The notes under the pieces: model-generated | Told to the model about the DNA's origin: nothing | The model's database searches: none | Seen by the model: the letters and a program-made list of their open reading frames with translations, nothing else | Source of the DNA: a virus | Lineage: Duplodnaviria > Heunggongvirae > Uroviricota > Caudoviricetes | Reading direction: 5' to 3' (one strand) | Length of the DNA stretch: 42,973 nt | IMG/VR virus record: IMGVR_UViG_3300011626_000001 | Span: 1 to 42,973 of that record | Program-made: the position numbers and the translations under genes | Shown here: piece by piece, positions 3,379 to 35,681 of the stretch | How positions within the stretch are numbered: the stretch's first letter is position 1 | Layout of the letters: each line of letters starts with the position of its first letter

Positions 3379-6050
3379 CAGTTAAGTTTCCCCGCTTTAA
3401 ACCTCTCCACGCCGTTGGCGTCATAAACAGCCAGCCCCGTTTCATTAAGTACGCTCCCTCCGGATGTACCTGAGCCTCCATATAGTTCAAAGGTGCCGTC
3501 GTTTCGCATAATCGTTCCCGATTTCCCGGCAACGTAATTTGCTGAGTACCACGACCCCACTTTAGCGAGCGTAATCGAGGCGTAGTTGATAAGCGCATCA
3601 TTGATAAACACCTGACCATTAACGGCAGTAAACGCCAGCTGGTAGCTCTGGTTAGTTGTGTTGTAAATCGCAAAGGTGTCTGCACTGAATAAGGCAAAAG
3701 ACTGCGTAGAGCCGCCATTCCCTTCAATGCCCAGCTGCATACCGGCCACATATTTCGTGCCATTCTTGTCAATCTGGACTTTTACGCCCCACTGAGCAGA
3801 CAATTTCCCGCTCAGATCAGCGTAAGCGCTGGATACCTGCTGTACTGATGAGGTGTTCTGGTCAGACTGCGCCTGAATCTGATCCATACGTTGTGCGTAG
3901 GCCGAATCATTCGTCGCGATGGTCTGCCTGACGCTGATGATATCAGCGCGGTTGCGCCCGCTAGCTTCAAACTGATGATCTACGGAAGCGTCCAGGTTAA
4001 GCGCGTTCTGGAGGATTGCATCAATACCCGTATCGATAGTGGAGCTAAGCCTGTCAAAAGCTTCTGACTTGCGTATTTGCGTGTCGATGTAATCAATCAG
4101 CTCACCAGTATCCGTGTTACACACTACGGGAACCTCAACAAACGCCGACGTTCCAAATGCGTTTATAGTCCGCACGTACCAGTAATAGGTTGGTCCAATC
4201 TTGAGCTCGTGTGCCGTCCAGTTGCTGCCAATACCTGCCCGGCTGGCATTGGCTTCCACGGTTGCCTGGGTGGTGTTTGGGAGCTTCGTTAAGCCTGACG
4301 TCCAGAAATCAAACTGCGTCGAAACATTCGTGATCTCATTGATGCGAGGAATGAGCGTTACAGCAAAATACCCCTGCTTTTGTTCAACGACAGAAGGCGG
4401 CGGCGGCGCTTCGATGCTGAATTCAAGATAGGCCTCCGGTGACTGGGCGCCCATCTGGTTTACAGCTATAACGTGTGCAGTATAAGTATCGCGCAGCAGG
4501 CCGGTCAGGCGAGTGAATGAACCAGGTACCTGAACGGAAAGAACCAGTTCCCCATCCTTGCGAATAAGAACCTGGTTATAAACATACTGACCAACGTTCT
4601 GCCATGAAAGCACGCCCTGAACTACCTGTCCGATTTCCTCAACGGTATATTTCAGGTTCTGAGGCTGAGCGACGCCTCCTGTAGGAAGTTGCGTAAATGG
4701 TGGGCGCTCAATAGGCTTGCCAATGGCATCACCCCACACCTCAGCAGTTTCCTGCTTCAGCGTCAGTTGCACACCATTCTGGACGCCAAATTTCCAGTCG
4801 GTTACCCGCATTTCAACGTCAGTAATACCGAGTGATGGAAAATTAACCTTCACGTACATGCCCGGTCGATATCGGTAGCCGCTCAGATTGAGAGTGACGT
4901 TCATCGTTCTGGAGATGCGTGTACGTTTAAGCTTAACGTCAGCCAGACGCTGCGCCTGAAATTCAGAGGTAACAAAGCGCAGTTTGAGGTCTTGTGAGAT
5001 TTCCACGCCGTCTTCTGCCACCCACTCAGAGACTGAGACGGTTGGGAAATCCACCTCGGAAAACCGCTGCATCGGGTCGATAAAGGTGCCTTTAATGGTA
5101 TTCACACGTTCTGATTGCGATACTTCAGGCATCATTTCTATGTCGCCAGCGAGCTGACTTTCGGTAATCACCTCTACAGCTGGCCCGTAATAGGCCCCGA
5201 CGAGGATGCCGTGTTTGCCAGCAATGTAGGTCGCCTCGCCTGCGCATGCTGAAAGCATGGCCTCCAGTATGCTTGCCTTATTCTCGCTCAGGTCAAATTC
5301 ACCATTAATGGTGTAACGCGGCTCCGTCTGATTACTGCTGCTTGTTACCCTTTCATCTGAAATATTTGCCGCTTCCTTGAACTGGTCCCAGTTAATGTCT
5401 GAGTCAGGCACTTTCAGGTAATTGCGGTAATAATCCAGGATGCACAGAGCGGCATTATTGCTGTAAACCGTGGCGCCGGTTCTGGGGTCATAAACCTTTT
5501 TGCCCATCTTCTCGACGGTGATGTTAGGGATACCCGCGGGGAATTTCTCCGCATCAAACTTCAGCGTCACCCTGAGCCAGCTGATGCCTTTACCAATCAT
5601 GTCCTCTTTCCATGACGGCGCGTTCTGCAGCAGGTAGGGGTCTGCAGTCTGTCGGTCGATGTGCACCTCGTAAGAGGCTTTATCGCCAAACGTAGAGATG
5701 TCATTGTCACCCAGATAAACTGCACCTACGCCAGTAATTGGATGCCCGGCAAGCGTAATTGCAAGGTGAAGAAGTTCGCCATCTGTCTGCTCTCCTGGTT
5801 GCTCCTCAGAAAAGAAAAGCGTCCCGGCAGAAAGGGATTTCCCGTAAATTACCGTCTTTGCACTGGCAGCGGCTCTCAGTACCTGCTTGCGTTCCTGAGT
5901 ATCCCTGTAACCGTTCATTGATGGTTTTTTTGTAAGGGCCTGAGAAGCAAGCTGGGCGGCTATGGTAATAACCATGGCAATGGCGTAAGCCTGATTCGCT
6001 ACAGCAATACCGCCCGCGATAGCGGCCACAACGGGAATAGCAGCAGGCAT
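3378..6050 (-). CDS. Host-specificity / central tail tip protein (J-like, 890 aa)
   Basis: Large protein directly after the minor tail proteins; N-terminal hydrophobic region and repeat-rich beta-type C-terminal region; operon position. Confidence 0.8.
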   Translation of the reverse strand: MPAAIPVVAAIAGGIAVANQAYAIAMVITIAAQLASQALTKKPSMNGYRDTQERKQVLRAAASAKTVIYGKSLSAGTLFFSEEQPGEQTDGELLHLAITLAGHPITGVGAVYLGDNDISTFGDKASYEVHIDRQTADPYLLQNAPSWKEDMIGKGISWLRVTLKFDAEKFPAGIPNITVEKMGKKVYDPRTGATVYSNNAALCILDYYRNYLKVPDSDINWDQFKEAANISDERVTSSSNQTEPRYTINGEFDLSENKASILEAMLSACAGEATYIAGKHGILVGAYYGPAVEVITESQLAGDIEMMPEVSQSERVNTIKGTFIDPMQRFSEVDFPTVSVSEWVAEDGVEISQDLKLRFVTSEFQAQRLADVKLKRTRISRTMNVTLNLSGYRYRPGMYVKVNFPSLGITDVEMRVTDWKFGVQNGVQLTLKQETAEVWGDAIGKPIERPPFTQLPTGGVAQPQNLKYTVEEIGQVVQGVLSWQNVGQYVYNQVLIRKDGELVLSVQVPGSFTRLTGLLRDTYTAHVIAVNQMGAQSPEAYLEFSIEAPPPPSVVEQKQGYFAVTLIPRINEITNVSTQFDFWTSGLTKLPNTTQATVEANASRAGIGSNWTAHELKIGPTYYWYVRTINAFGTSAFVEVPVVCNTDTGELIDYIDTQIRKSEAFDRLSSTIDTGIDAILQNALNLDASVDHQFEASGRNRADIISVRQTIATNDSAYAQRMDQIQAQSDQNTSSVQQVSSAYADLSGKLSAQWGVKVQIDKNGTKYVAGMQLGIEGNGGSTQSFALFSADTFAIYNTTNQSYQLAFTAVNGQVFINDALINYASITLAKVGSWYSANYVAGKSGTIMRNDGTFELYGGSGTSGGSVLNETGLAVYDANGVERFKAGKLN

Positions 6051-16843: not shown

Positions 16844-17581
16844 TTATTTCGATGCCTCATGCGCCGCTTTAAGTCGGGCATGTTCGGCGGGGTTATTTCG
16901 GCGGAGTTCAACTTTCTCCATGCCGCTCATTTGCTCCCATGTTTTGGTAACCCTGTCACCACTCTTAGGCGCGGCCCCGCCGCCACCTGCCTGACTGCCG
17001 CGCACGAGGGATGCGTAACGCGGAGAGGTTTCAAACTCTCTCTGGAGATCGGCCAGAGCGCTAACGGTGAGATTCCCTGAATCGTCAGTTACGCGCACCT
17101 GGCCTTCTGCCACTTTCAGCCGCTTGGCGATGAATTCTTTGAGGATGTCGGCGTTGTCGCCGTCTGCAATCGCCGTAGCGATGCGCGTGGCCGCCAGGTT
17201 GATGTCGCGCTGCTCAATGGACCGGCGAAGCTCTACGAGGCTGCTGCGTTCGCGCTCGAGTTCTGCCTGCGAGCTCTGGAAGAGCTGCTGATAATTGCCT
17301 TCTGCTGCCAGCCGCTCTTCTTCTTTGCGTCGGGCCTCTTCTTCTGCTGCGCGGCGACGCTCCTGCTCGGCTTTCTTCTCTGCCAGAAGCTCGTCACGCT
17401 GGCGCTTAAGGCCACTCACGTCTTCCTGAGGGATGCCATCAACCTGCAGTTGGTAGAGATCGCCCTGTTGCACATACAGCGCTTGTTTGGCTTCATCAAG
17501 CTGAGCGAATTCCTCAGCGGTAAGCTGATACTTCAGAGTCATACATTCTCCTGAATGAATGTGTGCTGGCCCGGCCAGCAT
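16844..17581 (-). CDS. Scaffolding protein (245 aa)
   Basis: Highly charged coiled-coil (RRAAEEEARRKEEERLAAEG); directly before the capsid gene. Confidence 0.55.
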   Translation of the reverse strand: MLAGPAHIHSGECMTLKYQLTAEEFAQLDEAKQALYVQQGDLYQLQVDGIPQEDVSGLKRQRDELLAEKKAEQERRRAAEEEARRKEEERLAAEGNYQQLFQSSQAELERERSSLVELRRSIEQRDINLAATRIATAIADGDNADILKEFIAKRLKVAEGQVRVTDDSGNLTVSALADLQREFETSPRYASLVRGSQAGGGGAAPKSGDRVTKTWEQMSGMEKVELRRNNPAEHARLKAAHEASK

Positions 17582-17637
17582 TGGAAGTAGGATAGAAAAT
17601 TAGTTAAATTAGGTTTTTCATTCGAAACGACCAGAAA

Positions 17638-18138
17638 ATGACTGCAAATAGTTCAGGCACATCTTCCTTTGCCATCATCTTTCCAGTTGTTTGCACACTT
17701 TTGGGTGGTGCAATAACATCTGGCTTAACTTGGGTGAGCACCTATCAAGCGGCGTCTTTAGCTCAGAAAAATGCATGCATTTTGCAATTCGACCAGCAAG
17801 AAAAAGAGATTCGCGCGAAGGCAGGTAACTTCCTTTCTGCATACGGGGATATTGTTGCTTACTTGACAGTAGCTGAACGGTTGAATCCTGTTGATATGCA
17901 AAAGTCTTCGGCGCCTCTGTTTAAAGCTGGTTTCGAGCTTGTTGCATATGCGCCTTCTGACTTATCGATCACGACAGCTCAATTGTTGGCTGCACTTAAA
18001 GATAATGTTGTTGATGAAATTAATGGCGAGAAGTCAGAGCAGCACCAAAAAACTGCTGCTGAAGTTTTTGGTAACTGGACGCATCTATACAGTAAACAAT
18101 TGCTAAGCCTGAAAGAGCAGAAAAACTCTTGTAAATAG
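17638..18138 (+). CDS. Hypothetical N-terminally membrane-anchored protein (166 aa); opposite-strand moron
   Basis: Low GC relative to flanks; N-terminal hydrophobic helix FAIIFPVVCTLLGGAITSGL; convergent with the MuF-like gene. Confidence 0.5.
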   Translation: MTANSSGTSSFAIIFPVVCTLLGGAITSGLTWVSTYQAASLAQKNACILQFDQQEKEIRAKAGNFLSAYGDIVAYLTVAERLNPVDMQKSSAPLFKAGFELVAYAPSDLSITTAQLLAALKDNVVDEINGEKSEQHQKTAAEVFGNWTHLYSKQLLSLKEQKNSCK

Positions 18139-19185
18139 CTAACTGATTTTTGCAAGCTCGAGAGCATGCGGCTCTAAATCTTTGAGTTGGTCGAGGGTGT
18201 ACTGCTTGCCGTTGTCATCAACAAAGCGATCAATGCTCAGCTCGCCTTTGCTGAAAAGCCTGTAGCGCGCAGGGCCAAGCACCTCTTTCTGGAACGCTGC
18301 AGGTTGTCTTGCCAGCCAGTCGCCGTAACTGGTGTTACTGCTGACCTGCTCAACGCCGTCCAGACCTTTTGATGGTCGCGTGCTGCCAGGAATCTCTCGC
18401 TGATACTCTGGTTTGAGCACCGGCACGATTGACGATCGGCACCCCCAATGTGCAGGTGGCTTTGGCCCATCCAGCGGATAAACCTTTCTATCACGCGCAC
18501 GGCATACCGGCGTTGTTCTGCTGTCGAGCGTTGCTATCCAGCGATGCCCCTGCAGGATGTCTTCATTCTGCTTCAGCGTTTCCGCCCGTGCAGATGAGGC
18601 GACGTGGTTGGTCATCGTTCTTACCAGCGATCCGACCTGCTCCTCATGTGACACACCGAGAGAAGTGAGACGACGGATAATCTGCTTTTGCGTCTCACCG
18701 AGCGATGACCCGATAGCGATTTCGCTGAGGATATCAGCCGCCTTCTTGCTGCCGAACTGCGCCAGCGCGCCAGTGATGTCGATAACCTGCCTGCCATGGC
18801 CTACAACAAGCTCTAACGGGTCAGCCAGTACAGCAGCGGCAATCATCTCCGCCGATGGCTCAGCGAGACGCACAGAAGCTTTAACGATTTGGCCGAGCAA
18901 TTTGCTGTTGAAGGCGAACTCGTATTGCGCGAACTCACCCAGGTCGAGCTTCTGTTGCTGTGACAGCTCACCATAGATGGTATTAAGGTCACTCCTGAGC
19001 GTTTCTATCTGCCTGTTGTAGCGTGCGGTAGCATACTGGCTCAACCCTCCGTTTACAGCTTCTTTAGCGCGCCTGATAGCCTTGCGGACGAACTTAGCTG
19101 CCTTGCCTGCCAGCCCTGACCCAAATCGCTGTACGTAAACCTGATGGCGCGTGGCGGCGTCTGTCGTGTAACCGTCTGCGCTCAT
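18139..19185 (-). CDS. Head morphogenesis protein (Mu F / SPP1 gp7 family)
   Basis: Motif ATLDSRTTPVCRARDRKVYPLD characteristic of the family; position after portal. Confidence 0.8.
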   Translation of the reverse strand: MSADGYTTDAATRHQVYVQRFGSGLAGKAAKFVRKAIRRAKEAVNGGLSQYATARYNRQIETLRSDLNTIYGELSQQQKLDLGEFAQYEFAFNSKLLGQIVKASVRLAEPSAEMIAAAVLADPLELVVGHGRQVIDITGALAQFGSKKAADILSEIAIGSSLGETQKQIIRRLTSLGVSHEEQVGSLVRTMTNHVASSARAETLKQNEDILQGHRWIATLDSRTTPVCRARDRKVYPLDGPKPPAHWGCRSSIVPVLKPEYQREIPGSTRPSKGLDGVEQVSSNTSYGDWLARQPAAFQKEVLGPARYRLFSKGELSIDRFVDDNGKQYTLDQLKDLEPHALELAKIS

Positions 19186-24843: not shown

Positions 24844-25296
24844 TCACTTCAAACACTGCTCATTGATGTACTGCTGCAATCCGGCTATTTGCTTCCCGGC
24901 GAGCTCGATTCGACTTCTGAGGGTGAAATAATCCCGTTCAGCGGAGTCAGTAAGTCCGGGGCTGGCTGCATCATCCAGGCTGGCGGTGCCGGTGGCGGAT
25001 TGCTTCGTGCAGGTGGCGTTGAGCTGCAACCGGCGCTTGCCAGAAGCAACGTCACGCTCAAGCTGATCGATAGTTGCCTGAGCACTGGCTAACTCCTTTG
25101 TGTATTTGGCGTCGAGCGCGGCAACATCACGCTGGCGGATCTGCATATCGTCAATCGTCTGCTGGCGCTCGGTAGCCAGGCTGTCAGCGGTAACGTATTT
25201 GCCGTGGAAAAGAATTGCTAACCGGCAGACCGTAATGAGCGCCACCAGCAGCAGGCCAATAATTAATGCTCGCCAACTAAATGTCATTTGGACCAT
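24844..25296 (-). CDS. Rz: i-spanin (Rz-like, 150 aa)
   Basis: N-terminal TM helix, coiled-coil periplasmic domain, position after endolysin. Confidence 0.75.
   Translation of the reverse strand: MVQMTFSWRALIIGLLLVALITVCRLAILFHGKYVTADSLATERQQTIDDMQIRQRDVAALDAKYTKELASAQATIDQLERDVASGKRRLQLNATCTKQSATGTASLDDAASPGLTDSAERDYFTLRSRIELAGKQIAGLQQYINEQCLK
24885..25085 (-). CDS. Rz1: o-spanin (Rz1-like lipoprotein) embedded in the +1 frame of the Rz-like gene
   Basis: Signal peptide with lipobox LLASAGC, proline-rich mature part, fully nested in Rz. Confidence 0.65.
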   Translation of the reverse strand: MLRQLSISLSVTLLLASAGCSSTPPARSNPPPAPPAWMMQPAPDLLTPLNGIISPSEVESSSPGSK

Positions 25297-25780
25297 CCGC
25301 CAGGCACATTGAACGCTCCATATCGCGTCGATTCATCAGGCCACGAAACTTCATGCCACCGGCATAAACCCAGCGGCGTAGCTCTTCACATGCACCATCC
25401 TGATCGCCTGCGTTCAGCTTCTTAAGCAGCGTAGATTTAGAGAATGCACCAGAACCGACGTTGTAGGTGAAGCTGTAGAGCGCAGCGCGCTGATATTCAT
25501 TAAGCGGCACTTTGACCAGACTATCGACCGTCTTCTTTACCGGCTGCAGGTCATTCCAAAGAAGGCGATCGCATTCGCGGTCGGTGTACTTCTTGCCTTT
25601 GATGATGTCTGTGCCGGTGTGACCATCACAGACCGTCCAGACTCCGGCAACATCTTTGTAGGGCTCGTACACACGGCCTTCCACGCCATCTTTACCGCCG
25701 AGGAATACCGTAGCGATAAGCATGGCTCCGCCACCTGCGGCAGCGATCAGCTTGTTCCGCAGTGAGTTTGACATTGCCAT
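25277..25780 (-). CDS. R: SAR endolysin (phage 21 R-type lysozyme)
   Basis: N-terminal Gly/Ala-rich signal-anchor-release segment; YEPYKDVAGVWTVCDGHTG closely resembles the phage 21 lysozyme catalytic region as I recall it. Confidence 0.85.
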   Translation of the reverse strand: MAMSNSLRNKLIAAAGGGAMLIATVFLGGKDGVEGRVYEPYKDVAGVWTVCDGHTGTDIIKGKKYTDRECDRLLWNDLQPVKKTVDSLVKVPLNEYQRAALYSFTYNVGSGAFSKSTLLKKLNAGDQDGACEELRRWVYAGGMKFRGLMNRRDMERSMCLADGPNDI

Positions 25781-25783
25781 GGG

Positions 25784-26026
25784 TTATTCCTCGGTGAGGC
25801 CGGGTGCGGTGGGCCAGCGCTGAAGCGCCTTGATCTGCGCCAGTGTGGCTTTGCGTTTGTAATACCAGTTGATGCCGAGCGTTAGCAGGGCGACCAGAAT
25901 ACCGGCCAGGACGCCTACAGCGCTCCACTCATCGGGACTAAGCCGGGTCAGAAGACCGTTGGCAATCGTCCCGGCTGACGCGCCATACGCTGCGCCTGAA
26001 GCCAGTTTGCTCATATCGATACTCAT
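25784..26026 (-). CDS. S: Pinholin (phage 21 S-type holin, 80 aa)
   Basis: Two TM segments; SPDEWSAVGVLAGILVALLTLGINWYYKRK resembles S21; paired with a SAR endolysin. Confidence 0.75.
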   Translation of the reverse strand: MSIDMSKLASGAAYGASAGTIANGLLTRLSPDEWSAVGVLAGILVALLTLGINWYYKRKATLAQIKALQRWPTAPGLTEE

Positions 26027-26158
26027 GTGACCCCCTCGGTGTTGAGGGAGCTAGCTCAATTAGGAATTGTCTACTTTCTGAACTGAGCAAGCCCGGTTAG
26101 CTTTAATCTTGTCGAGAGAGAAAAGCACCGCCCTGCCGTTGCGTAGCCAACGTTGAAG

Positions 26159-26183
26159 AATCCGCCTGAGCGCGGATTTTTTT
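26159..26183 (+). terminator. Rho-independent terminator (AATCCGC-CTGAGC-GCGGATT + T7) on plus strand
   Basis: Perfect 7-bp stem and T-run read directly; lies upstream of the 89-aa plus-strand gene, role unclear. Confidence 0.45.
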
Positions 26184-26334
26184 ATGGATAAAAATCGCCC
26201 TCTGCCCCGGATCGCTAGATTCGAAGTGTGCAGTGATTGGCAGGGGCGAAAACAGAAAGGCACCGCCGAAGCAGTGCCCTATAAAGTTTTTCAGTTTGTT
26301 GCCGATGAGAAATCCTCTAAAACAAGGAGGATTT

Positions 26335-26604
26335 ATGGCGAACAATCATCATGTATATCGAGTTCATGACTCGAAAGTAGCATCATTTAAAACAGAAGCG
26401 ATTCGTAAGCATCCGCACTTATCTATCCATGAGATTTCTACTGGCTCTCGGGATGACATAAATACTTATATAAATAAATCAGTACACGTATTCATTGCAG
26501 TTGCCGACCAAGCTACATTGGATCACTTTAATGCTGACATCAAACTTAACATTTCATTAAATTCTCAATATGAAGAATTAAGTGATAGTGAGTTTTACAT
26601 TTAG
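26335..26604 (+). CDS. Hypothetical protein (89 aa); antisense moron between Q and holin
   Basis: Strong SD AAGGAGG 6 nt before the ATG; AT-rich; followed by terminator; no family recognised. Confidence 0.5.
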   Translation: MANNHHVYRVHDSKVASFKTEAIRKHPHLSIHEISTGSRDDINTYINKSVHVFIAVADQATLDHFNADIKLNISLNSQYEELSDSEFYI

Positions 26605-26613
26605 TCTGCTAAC

Positions 26614-26653
26614 AAAAAACGCCCTCGCAGTTGGTGAGACTGCAGGGCGTTTT
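26614..26653. terminator. Bidirectional terminator (11-bp bulged stem, T-runs on both strands); candidate tR' of the late leader
   Basis: Inverted repeat ACGCCCTcGCAG / CTGCAGGGCGT flanked by A6 and T4 on plus, T6 on minus. Confidence 0.5.
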
Positions 26654-26795
26654 GATTATCAATAATCGATAGAACTGACCGTTTAAATTTATCGCGCTAA
26701 ACAACAAGGCGCAACTTCAACTGTTAGAAATCATATCCCTGACTTCCGGAAAAGTAAATAGTCTGCGATAAAATAACAGGCTATTTTATTTGGCT

Positions 26796-27563
26796 CTACG
26801 CGGTTACCTTATTCAGTGCCGCATTTGCCCATGACTCTTCTGTTTCCAGCTTGCCAATCAGCGTTTCATAAAACTGCTTGCCACTTTTCTCCCACGTAGC
26901 CAGGCTGATTAAGTCAGTGATGCTGCTGATCGCGCGATATGCTGCGGTTGAAGGAATACGCTCAAACCCTCTTCCGCTGCATTGCTTACAGTCACCCATC
27001 ACCGGCACGCCCTGCCGCTCTGACTCTTTGCGCATTACTGCGCGCCCTCGCCCGTTGCAATCCCGGCACGCCGAAGACACGACACCTTTTCCCGCGCACG
27101 TTTTGCAGCGCACCCGAACCTGCTCACGCACTTCGCGTCGGCCGGCGCCGGACAGCATCGACTTCATCGTCACGACTTCAGCAGCGATAAATCCGGTGGC
27201 GCTGCAGCACTCGCACGGCTTTACGCTGGCGGCGCTGCGGCAGTAATCCAGATAGGCGTAAGTTGCGAGCACTTGCATTACAGCTGGTTTAATATCGGTT
27301 TCAAGCTTGCGAAGGGCGGCAACCCGATCGCAGGTCTGCAGTGCAAAATCAGTTAACAGGGATACGGCGCGTCGGGCGTCGTTCTCGCTTACTCCAACCT
27401 TCCCCATGAAGGCTGCATAACCCAGCGGCGCGCGGCTTTGCGTCATGCCCATGGCTGCTACATAGTCGGTCCCGGTCATCGCGTCGGGCGATGTCTGTGG
27501 AGCCGTGCCACTGAAGTTCTGGCCCTTCGGGAAGTGATACTTCACTGTTGCTTCAAGGCTCAT
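26796..27563 (-). CDS. Q: Late antiterminator Q-like protein (255 aa)
   Basis: Position between nin genes and the lysis cassette; Cys-rich zinc-binding segment (CKTCAGKG...CRDCNGRG). Confidence 0.6.
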   Translation of the reverse strand: MSLEATVKYHFPKGQNFSGTAPQTSPDAMTGTDYVAAMGMTQSRAPLGYAAFMGKVGVSENDARRAVSLLTDFALQTCDRVAALRKLETDIKPAVMQVLATYAYLDYCRSAASVKPCECCSATGFIAAEVVTMKSMLSGAGRREVREQVRVRCKTCAGKGVVSSACRDCNGRGRAVMRKESERQGVPVMGDCKQCSGRGFERIPSTAAYRAISSITDLISLATWEKSGKQFYETLIGKLETEESWANAALNKVTA

Positions 27564-33849: not shown

Positions 33850-33966
33850 TGGCCGGAAGAGAGGTTTGGGTAAAGATTTAGCGGTATTAGCCGAAAAGAC
33901 ATATAGCACGAAGCCGACGCAAGAACGGATCGTTTAATCTTTTCAGGGAAATATCAGAGATTAGCT

Positions 33967-34962
33967 ATGGAACAACATGACGTTTTTGTGTACACAGGTG
34001 ATATCCACCGTGATGGTTATCTCGATCTTACTAATGCCATAAAAAAACGCAAAAAAGCTCAAGGACTCAGCACTGAGGTTACTTTTTGTGTCGCCACTTA
34101 TGGCGGAGATCCAAATGCAGGCTATCGTATAGGAAGAGCGCTTCAACATAACTATGAGAAAGTGAATCTTTTAGTAGTGGGCCCCTGTAAGAGTGCCGGG
34201 ACTTTGATAGCGATTGCAGCTGATAAGCTTATCATTGGAGACATGGGTGAGCTTGGCCCCCTTGATATACAGCTTAAAAAAAATGACGAAATTGGCGAGA
34301 TGAGTTCAGGCCTGGTCATAATGACGGCCTTAGATGCGTTAAAAGATCGCTCTATTTCGACGTTCAATTCTCATCTGGTTAAGATAAGATACGAAAACCA
34401 GATAAGTACGAAGATGTCAGCTGACATTGCTGCGAAGTTAACTGAGGCGTTAGTTGCTCCCATGGCTGCTCAGATAGATCCAATTAAACTTGGAGAGCAT
34501 CAACGAGCTATGAGCATTGCCATAACCTATGGGCAGCGACTCAGTGACAAATCTAAGTGTTTGAAGGATGGAGCTTTATTTAAATTAATTGCCTCTTATC
34601 CTTCACATGGTTTTGTGATAGATCGCAAAGAGGCTCGCGAACTTTTTCACCATGTTGAAAGTCCAACTGGTTACGCTGAAGCACTTTACGAGATTTTTTA
34701 TCAAAAAATTCACGAGGGTGAAATTCAACCTTACGGTAAACCGAAGGTGCTCGATTTCACTATCGATCCTGAAACAACTGAGAATAATGGAGATGCCAAT
34801 GCACAATCACCCGGAGATGGAGGTACTGAACAAGATGATTCAGGACCAAATCCAGGAGAGTCAAGATCTGGCAAAGCGAGCAGAGCAAAATCTAAACGAT
34901 CTGAAGCGTCAACTGGAGCCCTACCAGTTCAGCAGCCCAATGACATACCGCCTCCAGAGTGA
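33967..34962 (+). CDS. ClpP/S49-fold (SDH-type) serine peptidase-like protein with charged low-complexity C-terminal tail (331 aa)
   Basis: Segment GPCKSAGTLIAIAADKLIIGDMGELGPLDIQ resembles the Ser-containing core of ClpP/SppA-fold peptidases; no signal peptide; AT-rich gene. Confidence 0.55.
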   Translation: MEQHDVFVYTGDIHRDGYLDLTNAIKKRKKAQGLSTEVTFCVATYGGDPNAGYRIGRALQHNYEKVNLLVVGPCKSAGTLIAIAADKLIIGDMGELGPLDIQLKKNDEIGEMSSGLVIMTALDALKDRSISTFNSHLVKIRYENQISTKMSADIAAKLTEALVAPMAAQIDPIKLGEHQRAMSIAITYGQRLSDKSKCLKDGALFKLIASYPSHGFVIDRKEARELFHHVESPTGYAEALYEIFYQKIHEGEIQPYGKPKVLDFTIDPETTENNGDANAQSPGDGGTEQDDSGPNPGESRSGKASRAKSKRSEASTGALPVQQPNDIPPPE

Positions 34963-34984
34963 TCTCTCACCATTTTAAGTAAAG

Positions 34985-35008
34985 CCCGGCCACCGCGCCG
35001 GGTTTTTT
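34985..35008 (+). terminator. Rho-independent terminator (CCCGGC-CACCGC-GCCGGG + T6) ending the cI cargo operon
   Basis: Hairpin and T-run read directly, 23 nt after the peptidase-like stop. Confidence 0.6.
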
Positions 35009-35144
35009 ATACCCGCCACACCAATAGCCCGCCATTGAGCTGGCTTTTTCATGCTGCTCTAAAGTTATCAGTTATGCTGCCGTTAACCTCTTTGCTCTGG
35101 AAAACAGTAGTACCAATAACGACAATATGAAATCAAGCCGGTTG

Positions 35145-35168
35145 GCCCGCTATGCGCGGGCTTTTTTT
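35145..35168 (+). terminator. Terminator hairpin GCCCGC-TATGC-GCGGGC + T7
   Basis: Read directly; member of a repeated hairpin family. Confidence 0.5.
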
Positions 35169-35312
35169 CTTTCAATACATAAACTAACGTTATCCTGACG
35201 AGTAAAATTACTACGCTATATTTCACAGCAACGTAGCGGCAGTAGCCTATGCTTTGAAAGCACATTATTTGCTGTGTGCGATGGCTTTCCCCATTGGAAT
35301 TTGTGTCTTCTT

Positions 35313-35336
35313 GCCCGCCATAGAGCGGGCTTTTTT
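35313..35336 (+). terminator. Terminator hairpin GCCCGC-CATAGA-GCGGGC + T6
   Basis: Read directly; member of a repeated hairpin family. Confidence 0.5.
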
Positions 35337-35500
35337 AAGCCAACTCCCGCTGCCCAGAACAATCCTAACTTCATGACTTGTAGGACCATTCCCACATCGC
35401 AAGAACTCACACACTCCTAACCTTTAATGGCTACACGCATACAGGATGTTGCGCGTTAGCTGTACGAGATTTGCAGGTTAACCCTGTGCTGAATCACTTT

Positions 35501-35524
35501 GCCCGCCACTGAGCGGGCTTTTTT
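35501..35524 (+). terminator. Terminator hairpin GCCCGC-CACTGA-GCGGGC + T6
   Basis: Read directly; member of a repeated hairpin family. Confidence 0.5.
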
Positions 35525-35559
35525 GTGCCTGCAGATCCCACTTCGTAAAAATAAATCAC

Positions 35560-35650
35560 CTTTGAAAACAAAGCTTTTTGTATTTCTCGCCTTTAATTAC
35601 AATATTTATTGTTTACAGTATACAAACTTTATTGTAATTTTACTCCATCA
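35560..35650 (+). promoter_or_regulatory. Candidate OL/PL operator-promoter region
   Basis: AT-rich; contains TTGTAT / ATACAA half-site-like motifs shared with OR, and TTACAAT...ATTGTAA inverted repeats; lies upstream of nutL and N. Confidence 0.45.
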
Positions 35651-35681
35651 GCAGGACGCAGTACCCAACAGGATGTTGGAT

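Follow-up and report, generated by a model that had tools for sequence, protein, structure and literature searches.

Morons, in the sense of Juhala and Hendrix (summarised in PMC3594210), are recognised by extra DNA, a deviant base composition, a promoter and a terminator of their own, and expression from the repressed prophage. Those of phage HK97 consist of extra DNA of different guanine-plus-cytosine (GC) content within the late operon and specify small proteins of the envelope by which the lysogen is protected; one of them specifies the inner-membrane exclusion protein gp15 (PMC3594210). SieA of phage P22 blocks the ejection-protein conduit; three transmembrane (TM) segments are predicted for it, without a sizeable periplasmic domain (PMC10883804). 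Here we describe a gene for a protein of 166 amino acids (aa) that lies antisense within the head module of a virus of the Caudoviricetes, represented by IMG/VR record IMGVR_UViG_3300011626_000001. The complete stretch of 42,973 base pairs (bp), hereafter the window, shows the layout of a lambdoid siphovirus-type prophage and comes from Pantoea piersonii.

We consider it probable that the gene and a preceding promoter-like element together constitute a 'reverse moron', i.e. a cassette that opposes the late operon and occupies a hypervariable junction where the MuF-like gene borders the scaffold gene. The initial annotation, which was made from the sequence alone, had reported an open reading frame (ORF) of 166 aa on the plus strand between these two genes, with a stop codon abutting that of the MuF-like gene, and the profile matches of the flanking genes and the coordinates agree with that description:

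17638 to 18138, plus strand: coding sequence of the 166-aa ORF including the stop codon, with an ATG start; supported by substitution rates, the protein family and an AlphaFold2 model.
17580 to 18138, plus strand: inserted cassette of 559 bp (promoter-like spacer and ORF), delimited by alignment with 20 empty junctions.
17565 to 17579, no strand: perfect palindrome GCTGGCC-C-GGCCAGC, a backbone element directly upstream of the scaffold ribosome-binding site.
16844 to 17542, minus strand: head scaffolding gene, 232 aa (phrog_206, E = 3.6e-39), the downstream neighbour in the late operon.
18139 to 19185, minus strand: MuF-like head morphogenesis gene, 348 aa (PF04233, E = 8.2e-10), convergent with the ORF.
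18136 to 18141, no strand: abutting convergent stop codons TAG (18136-18138) and CTA (18139-18141), with zero intergenic DNA.

Abutment of the stop with that of MuF, or a short overlap, was found in most lineages of the family. The other boundary had to be corrected. The distance to the scaffold start had been given as about 55 bp, which is true only for the longest scaffold ORF (245 aa, ATG at 17581), a frame that would run through the conserved palindrome and the promoter-like element. Because a conserved AGGAGA ribosome-binding site precedes the ATG at 17542 and the homologues measure 232-233 aa, the latter should be the true start, from which a divergent spacer of 95 bp follows; automatic annotation that chooses the longest ORF would mis-set it. 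The interval originally marked begins at 17582, 56 nucleotides (nt) 5' of the ATG of the gene, and hence includes the promoter-like spacer.

In its layout the cassette resembles P22 sieA, which encodes an inner-membrane protein of 164 aa (cf. 166 aa in the window) and lies antisense and convergent to late gene 16 (22 bp after it); sieA has its own promoter, for which the cassette shows a candidate. The SieA sequence types are <30% identical to each other (PMC10883804), in which they are like the family described here. The gene gp23 of HK97 is annotated as a reverse-oriented moron and has the orientation of the window cassette, whereas gp15 (62 aa, YebO family) lies on the late-gene strand and has its own terminator, while the window cassette is antisense and lacks one.

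Related head modules were collected with the MuF-like protein as query, yielding 46 modules (MuF 68-95% identical; loci L014-L022 and L028-L064), 9 of them from reference genomes and 37 from IMG/VR, with some redundancy between the sets. This provided the synteny comparison that had been proposed as a check of the initial annotation: the junction between MuF and scaffold is empty in 20 of the 46 modules, carries other cargo in 20 and carries a family gene, always antisense, in five, while a sixth family gene lies on a truncated contig. An empty junction measures 46-49 bp and consists, in this order, of ~11 nt, the palindrome GCTGGCC-N-GGCCAGC and the scaffold ribosome-binding site. The 559 bp of the cassette replace the ~11 nt that in these relatives lie between the MuF stop and the palindrome, so that the window contains the extra DNA that characterises a moron. 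The palindrome is kept in the inspected junctions of empty-slot, other-cargo and family-carrying relatives alike, and the alignments suggest that it (17565-17579) marks the boundary of the insertion slot. It was rejected as an intrinsic terminator, as neither strand shows a T-run; it could be an element of RNA processing or stability, a translational control of scaffold or a recombination boundary. At the equivalent place, two more distant modules (L006 and L027) show an analogous palindrome, GCAGGCCCTGCCTGC.

The other cargos measure 227-1060 bp, are mostly of low GC (0.40-0.54), belong to at least nine unrelated types and all lie on the strand of the head genes; the small same-strand ORFs among them encode 58-93 aa. 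They include, by locus:

L014/L029: 65-aa protein with a CxxC...CxxC arrangement.
L016/L040: 86-aa acidic protein.
L017/L032/L033: 62-aa protein.
L019/L049/L051: 59-60-aa protein.
L031 and L037: proteins of 82 and 92 aa, respectively.
L045/L052: crAss001_48-like protein of 70 aa.
L048: HNH endonuclease of 293 aa.

These cargos are possibly counter-defence or homing elements. The junction itself is a hypervariable slot for accessory genes. Mu-like Pseudomonas phages have an anti-CRISPR/accessory locus between gene G and the protease/scaffold genes, which is like the slot in the window in being hypervariable, in lying within the head operon and in its position just upstream of the scaffold gene. 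The genes of that locus lie on the head-gene strand and their products are cytoplasmic, whereas the window gene is antisense and its product is predicted to be membrane-anchored.

The second hallmark of a moron, a deviant base composition, is also found. The GC of the ORF is 0.427, compared to 0.56-0.58 in the immediate flanks, as had been noticed in the initial annotation, and to a window mean of 0.527 (z = -2.2; 3.3% of the 501-nt windows of the contig are as low). The GC at third codon positions is 0.38 vs 0.61, and the GC of the cassette lies below that of its flanks in 11 of the 11 lineages that were examined. The gene had been proposed to fall if the ORF were disrupted in close relatives that retain the DNA, yet it is intact in every relative found. 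The ratio of non-synonymous to synonymous substitution rates (dN/dS) is 0.08-0.12 at a dS of ~1 (pairwise Nei-Gojobori estimates among the relatives), indistinguishable from that of MuF (0.09) and scaffold (0.12) across the same genomes, and the reading frame is maintained down to ~20% protein identity in 64 clusters. Because of this dN/dS, the intact frame in the relatives and the 64 matching cluster representatives, the ORF is a real gene under purifying selection.

The alleles of this gene do not follow the phages that carry them. In L009 the virion proteins are 93-98% identical to those of the window, yet the family allele is only ~21% identical. In L001 the tape measure protein is 68% and the major capsid protein 80% identical, yet the allele is 81% identical to that of the window. 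In L010, where both the head module and the slot differ, the allele is 52% identical, and in L034 and L063, with MuF 94% identical, the alleles are 30-32% identical. Members down to ~20% identity still use the slot between MuF and scaffold in prophages of Pseudomonas and of enterobacteria with different terminase and capsid types. A second slot was found in two lineages (P0005 and P0010), where the gene, again antisense, is flanked by the lysis cassette and the small terminase gene and abuts the Rz-like gene; one of these copies is in a lambda-type head module without MuF. The lambda gene bor has this position and orientation, antisense downstream of Rz; Bor is a small outer-membrane lipoprotein, whereas an inner-membrane anchor is predicted for the window protein, which lacks a lipobox. 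Every phage-embedded copy that was examined lies antisense to the late operon. Taken together, these comparisons indicate that the cassette passes between phages uncoupled from the virion genes; alleles that have diversified so strongly in near-isogenic backbones are in keeping with a function in an arms race. The suggestion of the initial annotation that the gene is an antisense moron inserted in the head operon is thus strengthened by the empty junctions, the foreign GC, the movement apart from the virion genes and the promoter-like element described below.

The cassette begins with two conserved blocks:

17581 to 17609, plus strand: candidate sigma-70-type promoter, with a -35-like TTGGAA at 17581-17586, a spacer of 17 nt and a -10-like TTAAAT at 17604-17609.

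The TTGGAA and TTAAAT blocks are invariant in the window and in L001, L003, L004 and L010, while the bases between and around them vary; the pattern TTGG, 16-17 nt, GTTAAATT is thus unchanged in five copies that span two slots. It is plausible, from this conservation, that the cassette carries its own promoter. The Shine-Dalgarno sequence of the ORF is weak or absent. Any transcript of the ORF would run antisense into MuF, since there is no terminator, and the late transcript must in turn traverse ~560 nt of antisense cargo before it reaches the scaffold gene; the cassette and the late operon would therefore be expected to exclude each other's expression. As a separate observation, the spacer between family gene and scaffold in two other loci (L013, ~2330-2370; L023, ~4770-4810) contains a strong GC-rich hairpin (AAAAAACCCGC...GCGGG) between an A-run and a T-rich stretch, which looks like a bidirectional terminator inside the late operon and would require antitermination of the Q type.

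The relatives of the protein are scarce among annotated phages. A word-indexed search of 5.8 billion proteins recovered three (83, 81 and 60% identity), all of which share slot and orientation with the window ORF, and a second such search at least six proteins. A profile search of 1.84 billion cluster representatives (50% identity) recovered 64 proteins at E ≤ 1e-3, mostly of 150-200 aa and, barring a few shorter fragments, matching end to end; 61 sequences made up the family alignment that was used for conservation and for AlphaFold2. The members derive from Pantoea, Enterobacter, Pectobacterium and Pseudomonas and are always named 'hypothetical protein' in their sources. Only one of 50,697 deposited phage records contains a member (protein searches with four members), namely vB_PaeS-D14H, a computationally derived P. 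aeruginosa prophage, and a DNA search of the locus against deposited phages and E. coli genomes found nothing. The window protein has no match in Pfam at E ≤ 0.01, Foldseek against viral and PDB libraries gave nothing significant, and a PDB sequence profile search gave noise only (E ≥ 1). Some candidate matches were set aside: a tblastn match in Vibrio phage 1.173.O (28.8% identity, E = 0.2) lies in a replication-module context and was judged to be chance, and matches of single members to HrpB7, the entry exclusion protein TrbK, sigma factors and one holin PHROG were not common to other members.

Two further contexts of the family are of note. The P. piersonii chromosome (P0085/P0092, on contigs of 3.88 and 1.5 Mb) carries elsewhere in the genome a second, divergent allele, which is of the P0008 type, specifies 164 aa and shares ~30% identity with the window protein, so that one host can hold two alleles. 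In Pectobacterium aroidearum the member P0007 (L067, 5001-5510; L068, 703-1212) has no phage morphogenesis genes in view and is surrounded by genes for an aas-like acyltransferase, an MFS transporter, an acetyltransferase and entericidin, in one variant with an IS4 transposase; the gene may thus be retained and function without a prophage.

The AlphaFold2 model is very confident, with a mean predicted local distance difference test score (pLDDT) of 93.7 and a predicted template-modelling score (pTM) of 0.77. It contains helices at residues 10-78 (uninterrupted), 84-104, 107-128 and 134-164, arranged along the chain as a TM helix (11-33), a single-helix stalk of 13 residues (34-46) and an up-down-up-down four-helix bundle; the chain ends at residue 166, one residue past alpha-4 and Cys165. 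The codons of the elements discussed here are located as follows:

17668 to 17736, plus strand: TM anchor, residues 11-33 (FAIIFPVVCTLLGGAITSGLTWV), recognised by hydrophobicity and helical in the model.
17776 to 17778, plus strand: codon of Cys47, invariant, at the base of alpha-1.
18130 to 18132, plus strand: codon of Cys165, invariant, at the end of alpha-4.

The N-terminal hydrophobic helix of the initial annotation is thereby recovered: the mean Kyte-Doolittle hydrophobicity over 19 residues peaks at 1.96 (residues 12-30), and such a segment occurs in every family member (minimum 1.53). It is the only hydrophobic segment of the window protein, of which the remainder is a bundle of the soluble type, and the model accordingly predicts a single-pass membrane protein with a four-helix-bundle ectodomain. 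Cys47 and Cys165 are the sole invariant columns among the 61 sequences; E55 and R59 are >90% conserved, and strong conservation is also seen for D52, K61, F65, the AYAP turn (103-106), W147 and a basic residue at 162. Since the two cysteines are invariant and lie in register at the base of the antiparallel alpha-1/alpha-4 pair (78-47 = 165-134 = 31, by arithmetic on the helix boundaries), we infer that they form a disulfide staple, and an invariant structural cysteine pair would favour an oxidising compartment. The topology check that had been proposed was carried out on the family: among the 61 members, an average of 2.0 lysine and arginine residues precede the TM segment and 1.2 follow it, and the N-terminal count is the higher one in 39 of the 61. 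As this charge distribution agrees with it, an N-in/C-out topology with a periplasmic domain appears the likely arrangement. A lipoprotein of the Bor, Cor or Llp type was rejected, as C19, the sole N-terminal cysteine, stands in the context FPVVC without an [LVI][ASTVI][GAS]C motif, there is no basic n-region, and C19 is missing from most family members. An i-spanin (Rz, PF03245) was likewise rejected: there is no profile match, the window has its own Rz/Rz1, and the gene is antisense to the late genes; i-spanins moreover form an extended coiled coil, whereas the window model is a compact bundle.

On this basis we propose the following. The product would be a bitopic inner-membrane protein with a short cytoplasmic N-terminus, of which the TM helix (11-33) extends as the 13-residue stalk into alpha-1 of the periplasmic four-helix bundle, with the Cys47-Cys165 pair closing the base of the bundle. 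Its own sigma-70-like promoter would drive transcription in the lysogen, in which the late operon is silent, and lytic growth would silence the gene when antitermination lets late transcription cross it in antisense. The periplasmic bundle might then block the genome delivery of superinfecting phages at the inner membrane. The initial annotation had named expression from the prophage, with exclusion, membrane defence or host fitness as candidate roles; we suppose that the protein would most likely protect the envelope of the lysogen, for example against other phages. Superinfection exclusion, argued by analogy, is our leading hypothesis for the role, which we advance tentatively. It is conceivable, at a similar level of doubt, that the family represents a new class of superinfection-exclusion or envelope-immunity proteins, in which a helical stalk holds a disulfide-stapled bundle ~2 nm above the inner membrane and the alleles correspond to exclusion specificities. 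The alleles, 20-30% identical, might under this same speculative reading be swapped as promoter-plus-gene cassettes between two antisense slots in the lambdoid phages of Enterobacterales and Pseudomonas.

Several results weigh against this proposal, in one or another of its parts. The cassette lacks the terminator that morons have, as no terminator-like hairpin with a T-run was found downstream of the gene in the window or its homologues; a consensus promoter scan reported no promoter at its threshold, each hexamer agreeing with the consensus in only 4 of 6 positions; and the positive-inside signal is moderate in the family and weak for the window protein (no lysine or arginine before the TM segment, one after it). 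With respect to function, the window protein and the 61 members show no consistent match in Pfam, PHROGs, NCBIfam or PADLOC, and the PADLOC-DB profiles do not match the window protein at E ≤ 1. There is no homology to P22 SieA (hhalign probability of the family profile 0.1%) or to HK97 gp15/YebO (1.3% over 5 columns). SieA has three predicted TM segments where the window protein has one and a bundle of ~120 residues, and the function of SieA has been demonstrated, while an exclusion role of the window protein is argued by analogy only. Finally, no co-variation was found between the type of allele and the tape measure or any other virion protein, which gives no support to a self-directed specificity of exclusion.

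An alternative reading takes the domain as a mimic or decoy of a sensor domain, that pairs with a host sensor or sequesters a periplasmic ligand, rewires the signalling of the host as a lysogen and thereby serves lysogenic conversion instead of defence; a bolder variant would let the bundle hijack a host chemoreceptor or histidine kinase. The TM helix runs into alpha-1 as in chemoreceptors and histidine kinases, the charged residues D52, E55 and R59 are conserved along alpha-1, and the sensors of the 4HB_MCP/TarH type (Tar, Tsr, TorS, NarQ, QseE) have a four-helix bundle continuous with TM1, as in the window model, although this likeness of fold is unspecific, as designed bundles score similarly. 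The window protein lacks, however, the TM2 and the cytoplasmic signalling module of these sensors and has the invariant cysteine pair. Neither the window protein nor the weak matches of the 61 members gave a sequence-profile match to 4HB_MCP or TarH, nor was there one to other sensor families or PDB sequences. Alleles that are 20-30% identical in near-identical phages, moreover, suit a target in an arms race better than a conserved host sensor, and we regard the decoy as unlikely.

The gene might also act in the lytic cycle, as an antiholin-type factor of lysis timing or in remodelling of the envelope, expressed from its own promoter during infection. It adjoins the lysis cassette in two lineages, and an N-terminal anchor followed by a helical periplasmic domain with cysteines superficially resembles T4 RI and the i-spanins. 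Against such a role, all phage-embedded copies that were examined oppose the late operon; most close relatives lack the gene, so that it is dispensable for growth; the window already encodes a holin, an endolysin and Rz/Rz1; apart from one weak match of a single member there is no match to PF03245 or a holin family; and P0007 lies outside any phage module. A lytic function is accordingly quite unlikely.

As a third possibility, the product could be a periplasmic immunity protein against a toxin that acts on the envelope, either a bacteriocin or a MuF-type polymorphic toxin of related phages, and would then shield the lysogen from toxin made by its kin. The gene tightly adjoins MuF in 11 allele lineages, its allelic diversity is like the polymorphism of toxin and immunity genes, and membrane-anchored, disulfide-containing periplasmic immunity proteins are known, for example that against colicin M. 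The MuF-like protein of the window matches phrog_241 (E = 9.6e-113) only at profile positions 12-365 of 679, so that many phrog_241 members would have an extra C-terminal region that this one lacks, and some relatives an extra C-terminal domain. In the window and in all related loci that were inspected, however, MuF measures 348-365 aa with PF04233 as its sole Pfam domain and without a C-terminal toxin module; immunity genes usually lie downstream of the toxin on the same strand, whereas this gene is on the opposite strand; and members are also found outside phages and in a lambda-type head module that lacks MuF. We therefore judge immunity to be very unlikely.

A chance ORF, or a functional antisense RNA without a protein product, would agree with the poor Shine-Dalgarno sequence and with a transcript that must enter MuF in antisense for want of a terminator, but is effectively refuted by the dN/dS of ~0.1 at saturated synonymous sites, the frame kept to ~20% identity in 64 clusters, the very confident fold supported by co-evolution (pLDDT 93.7) and, for an RNA, the lack of a match in Rfam.

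The remainder of the window agrees with its prophage-like layout. The minus strand holds nearly all genes from ~0.4 to 26 kb, including those for holin, endolysin, Rz/Rz1, the small and large terminase subunits and a DUF4055 portal, and further those for the MuF-like protein, scaffold, major capsid protein and tail; no exact terminal overlap of the window ends was found. The lysis cassette comprises, one per line:

25784 to 26026: holin.
25277 to 25780: endolysin.
24844 to 25296, minus strand: Rz-like i-spanin, 150 aa, with an N-terminal TM segment.
24885 to 25085, minus strand: Rz1-like lipoprotein ORF, 66 aa, with the lipobox LLASAGC, embedded in Rz in the +1 frame.

The slot between the tail assembly chaperone and tape measure genes, which is occupied by gp15 in HK97, contains a second antisense gene in the window (11274-11801, plus strand, 175 aa, phrog_3556 of unknown function), between the chaperone gene at 12073-12582 and the tape measure gene at 7647-10493 and within an island of low GC at ~10461-11450; in L009 the same slot holds an opposite-strand ParA-like ATPase (CbiA/AAA_31, L009 1104-2186). 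Two more islands of low GC are as extreme as the one studied here: that at 26061-27010, upstream of the holin, has a plus-strand ORF of 123 aa (26233-26604) without a PHROG match, and that at 33871-35670 belongs to the early/immunity region. Both islands probably represent further accessory cargo.

The category to which this gene belongs, a reverse moron that encodes an envelope protein, is already known, while the protein family is neither described nor annotated. With its very confident predicted structure and clear topology prediction, this unannotated family constitutes a well-defined experimental lead, and the two fixed slots with divergent alleles in nearly isogenic backbones provide a natural allele panel. 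The slot between MuF and scaffold could be mined for defence and counter-defence genes, since this type of head module is widespread. Among the main ways in which prophages alter the phenotype of their hosts are morons, most of which are still 'hypothetical'; should the exclusion role prove true, the small set of inner-membrane exclusion proteins that are mechanistically understood would gain a structurally new type.

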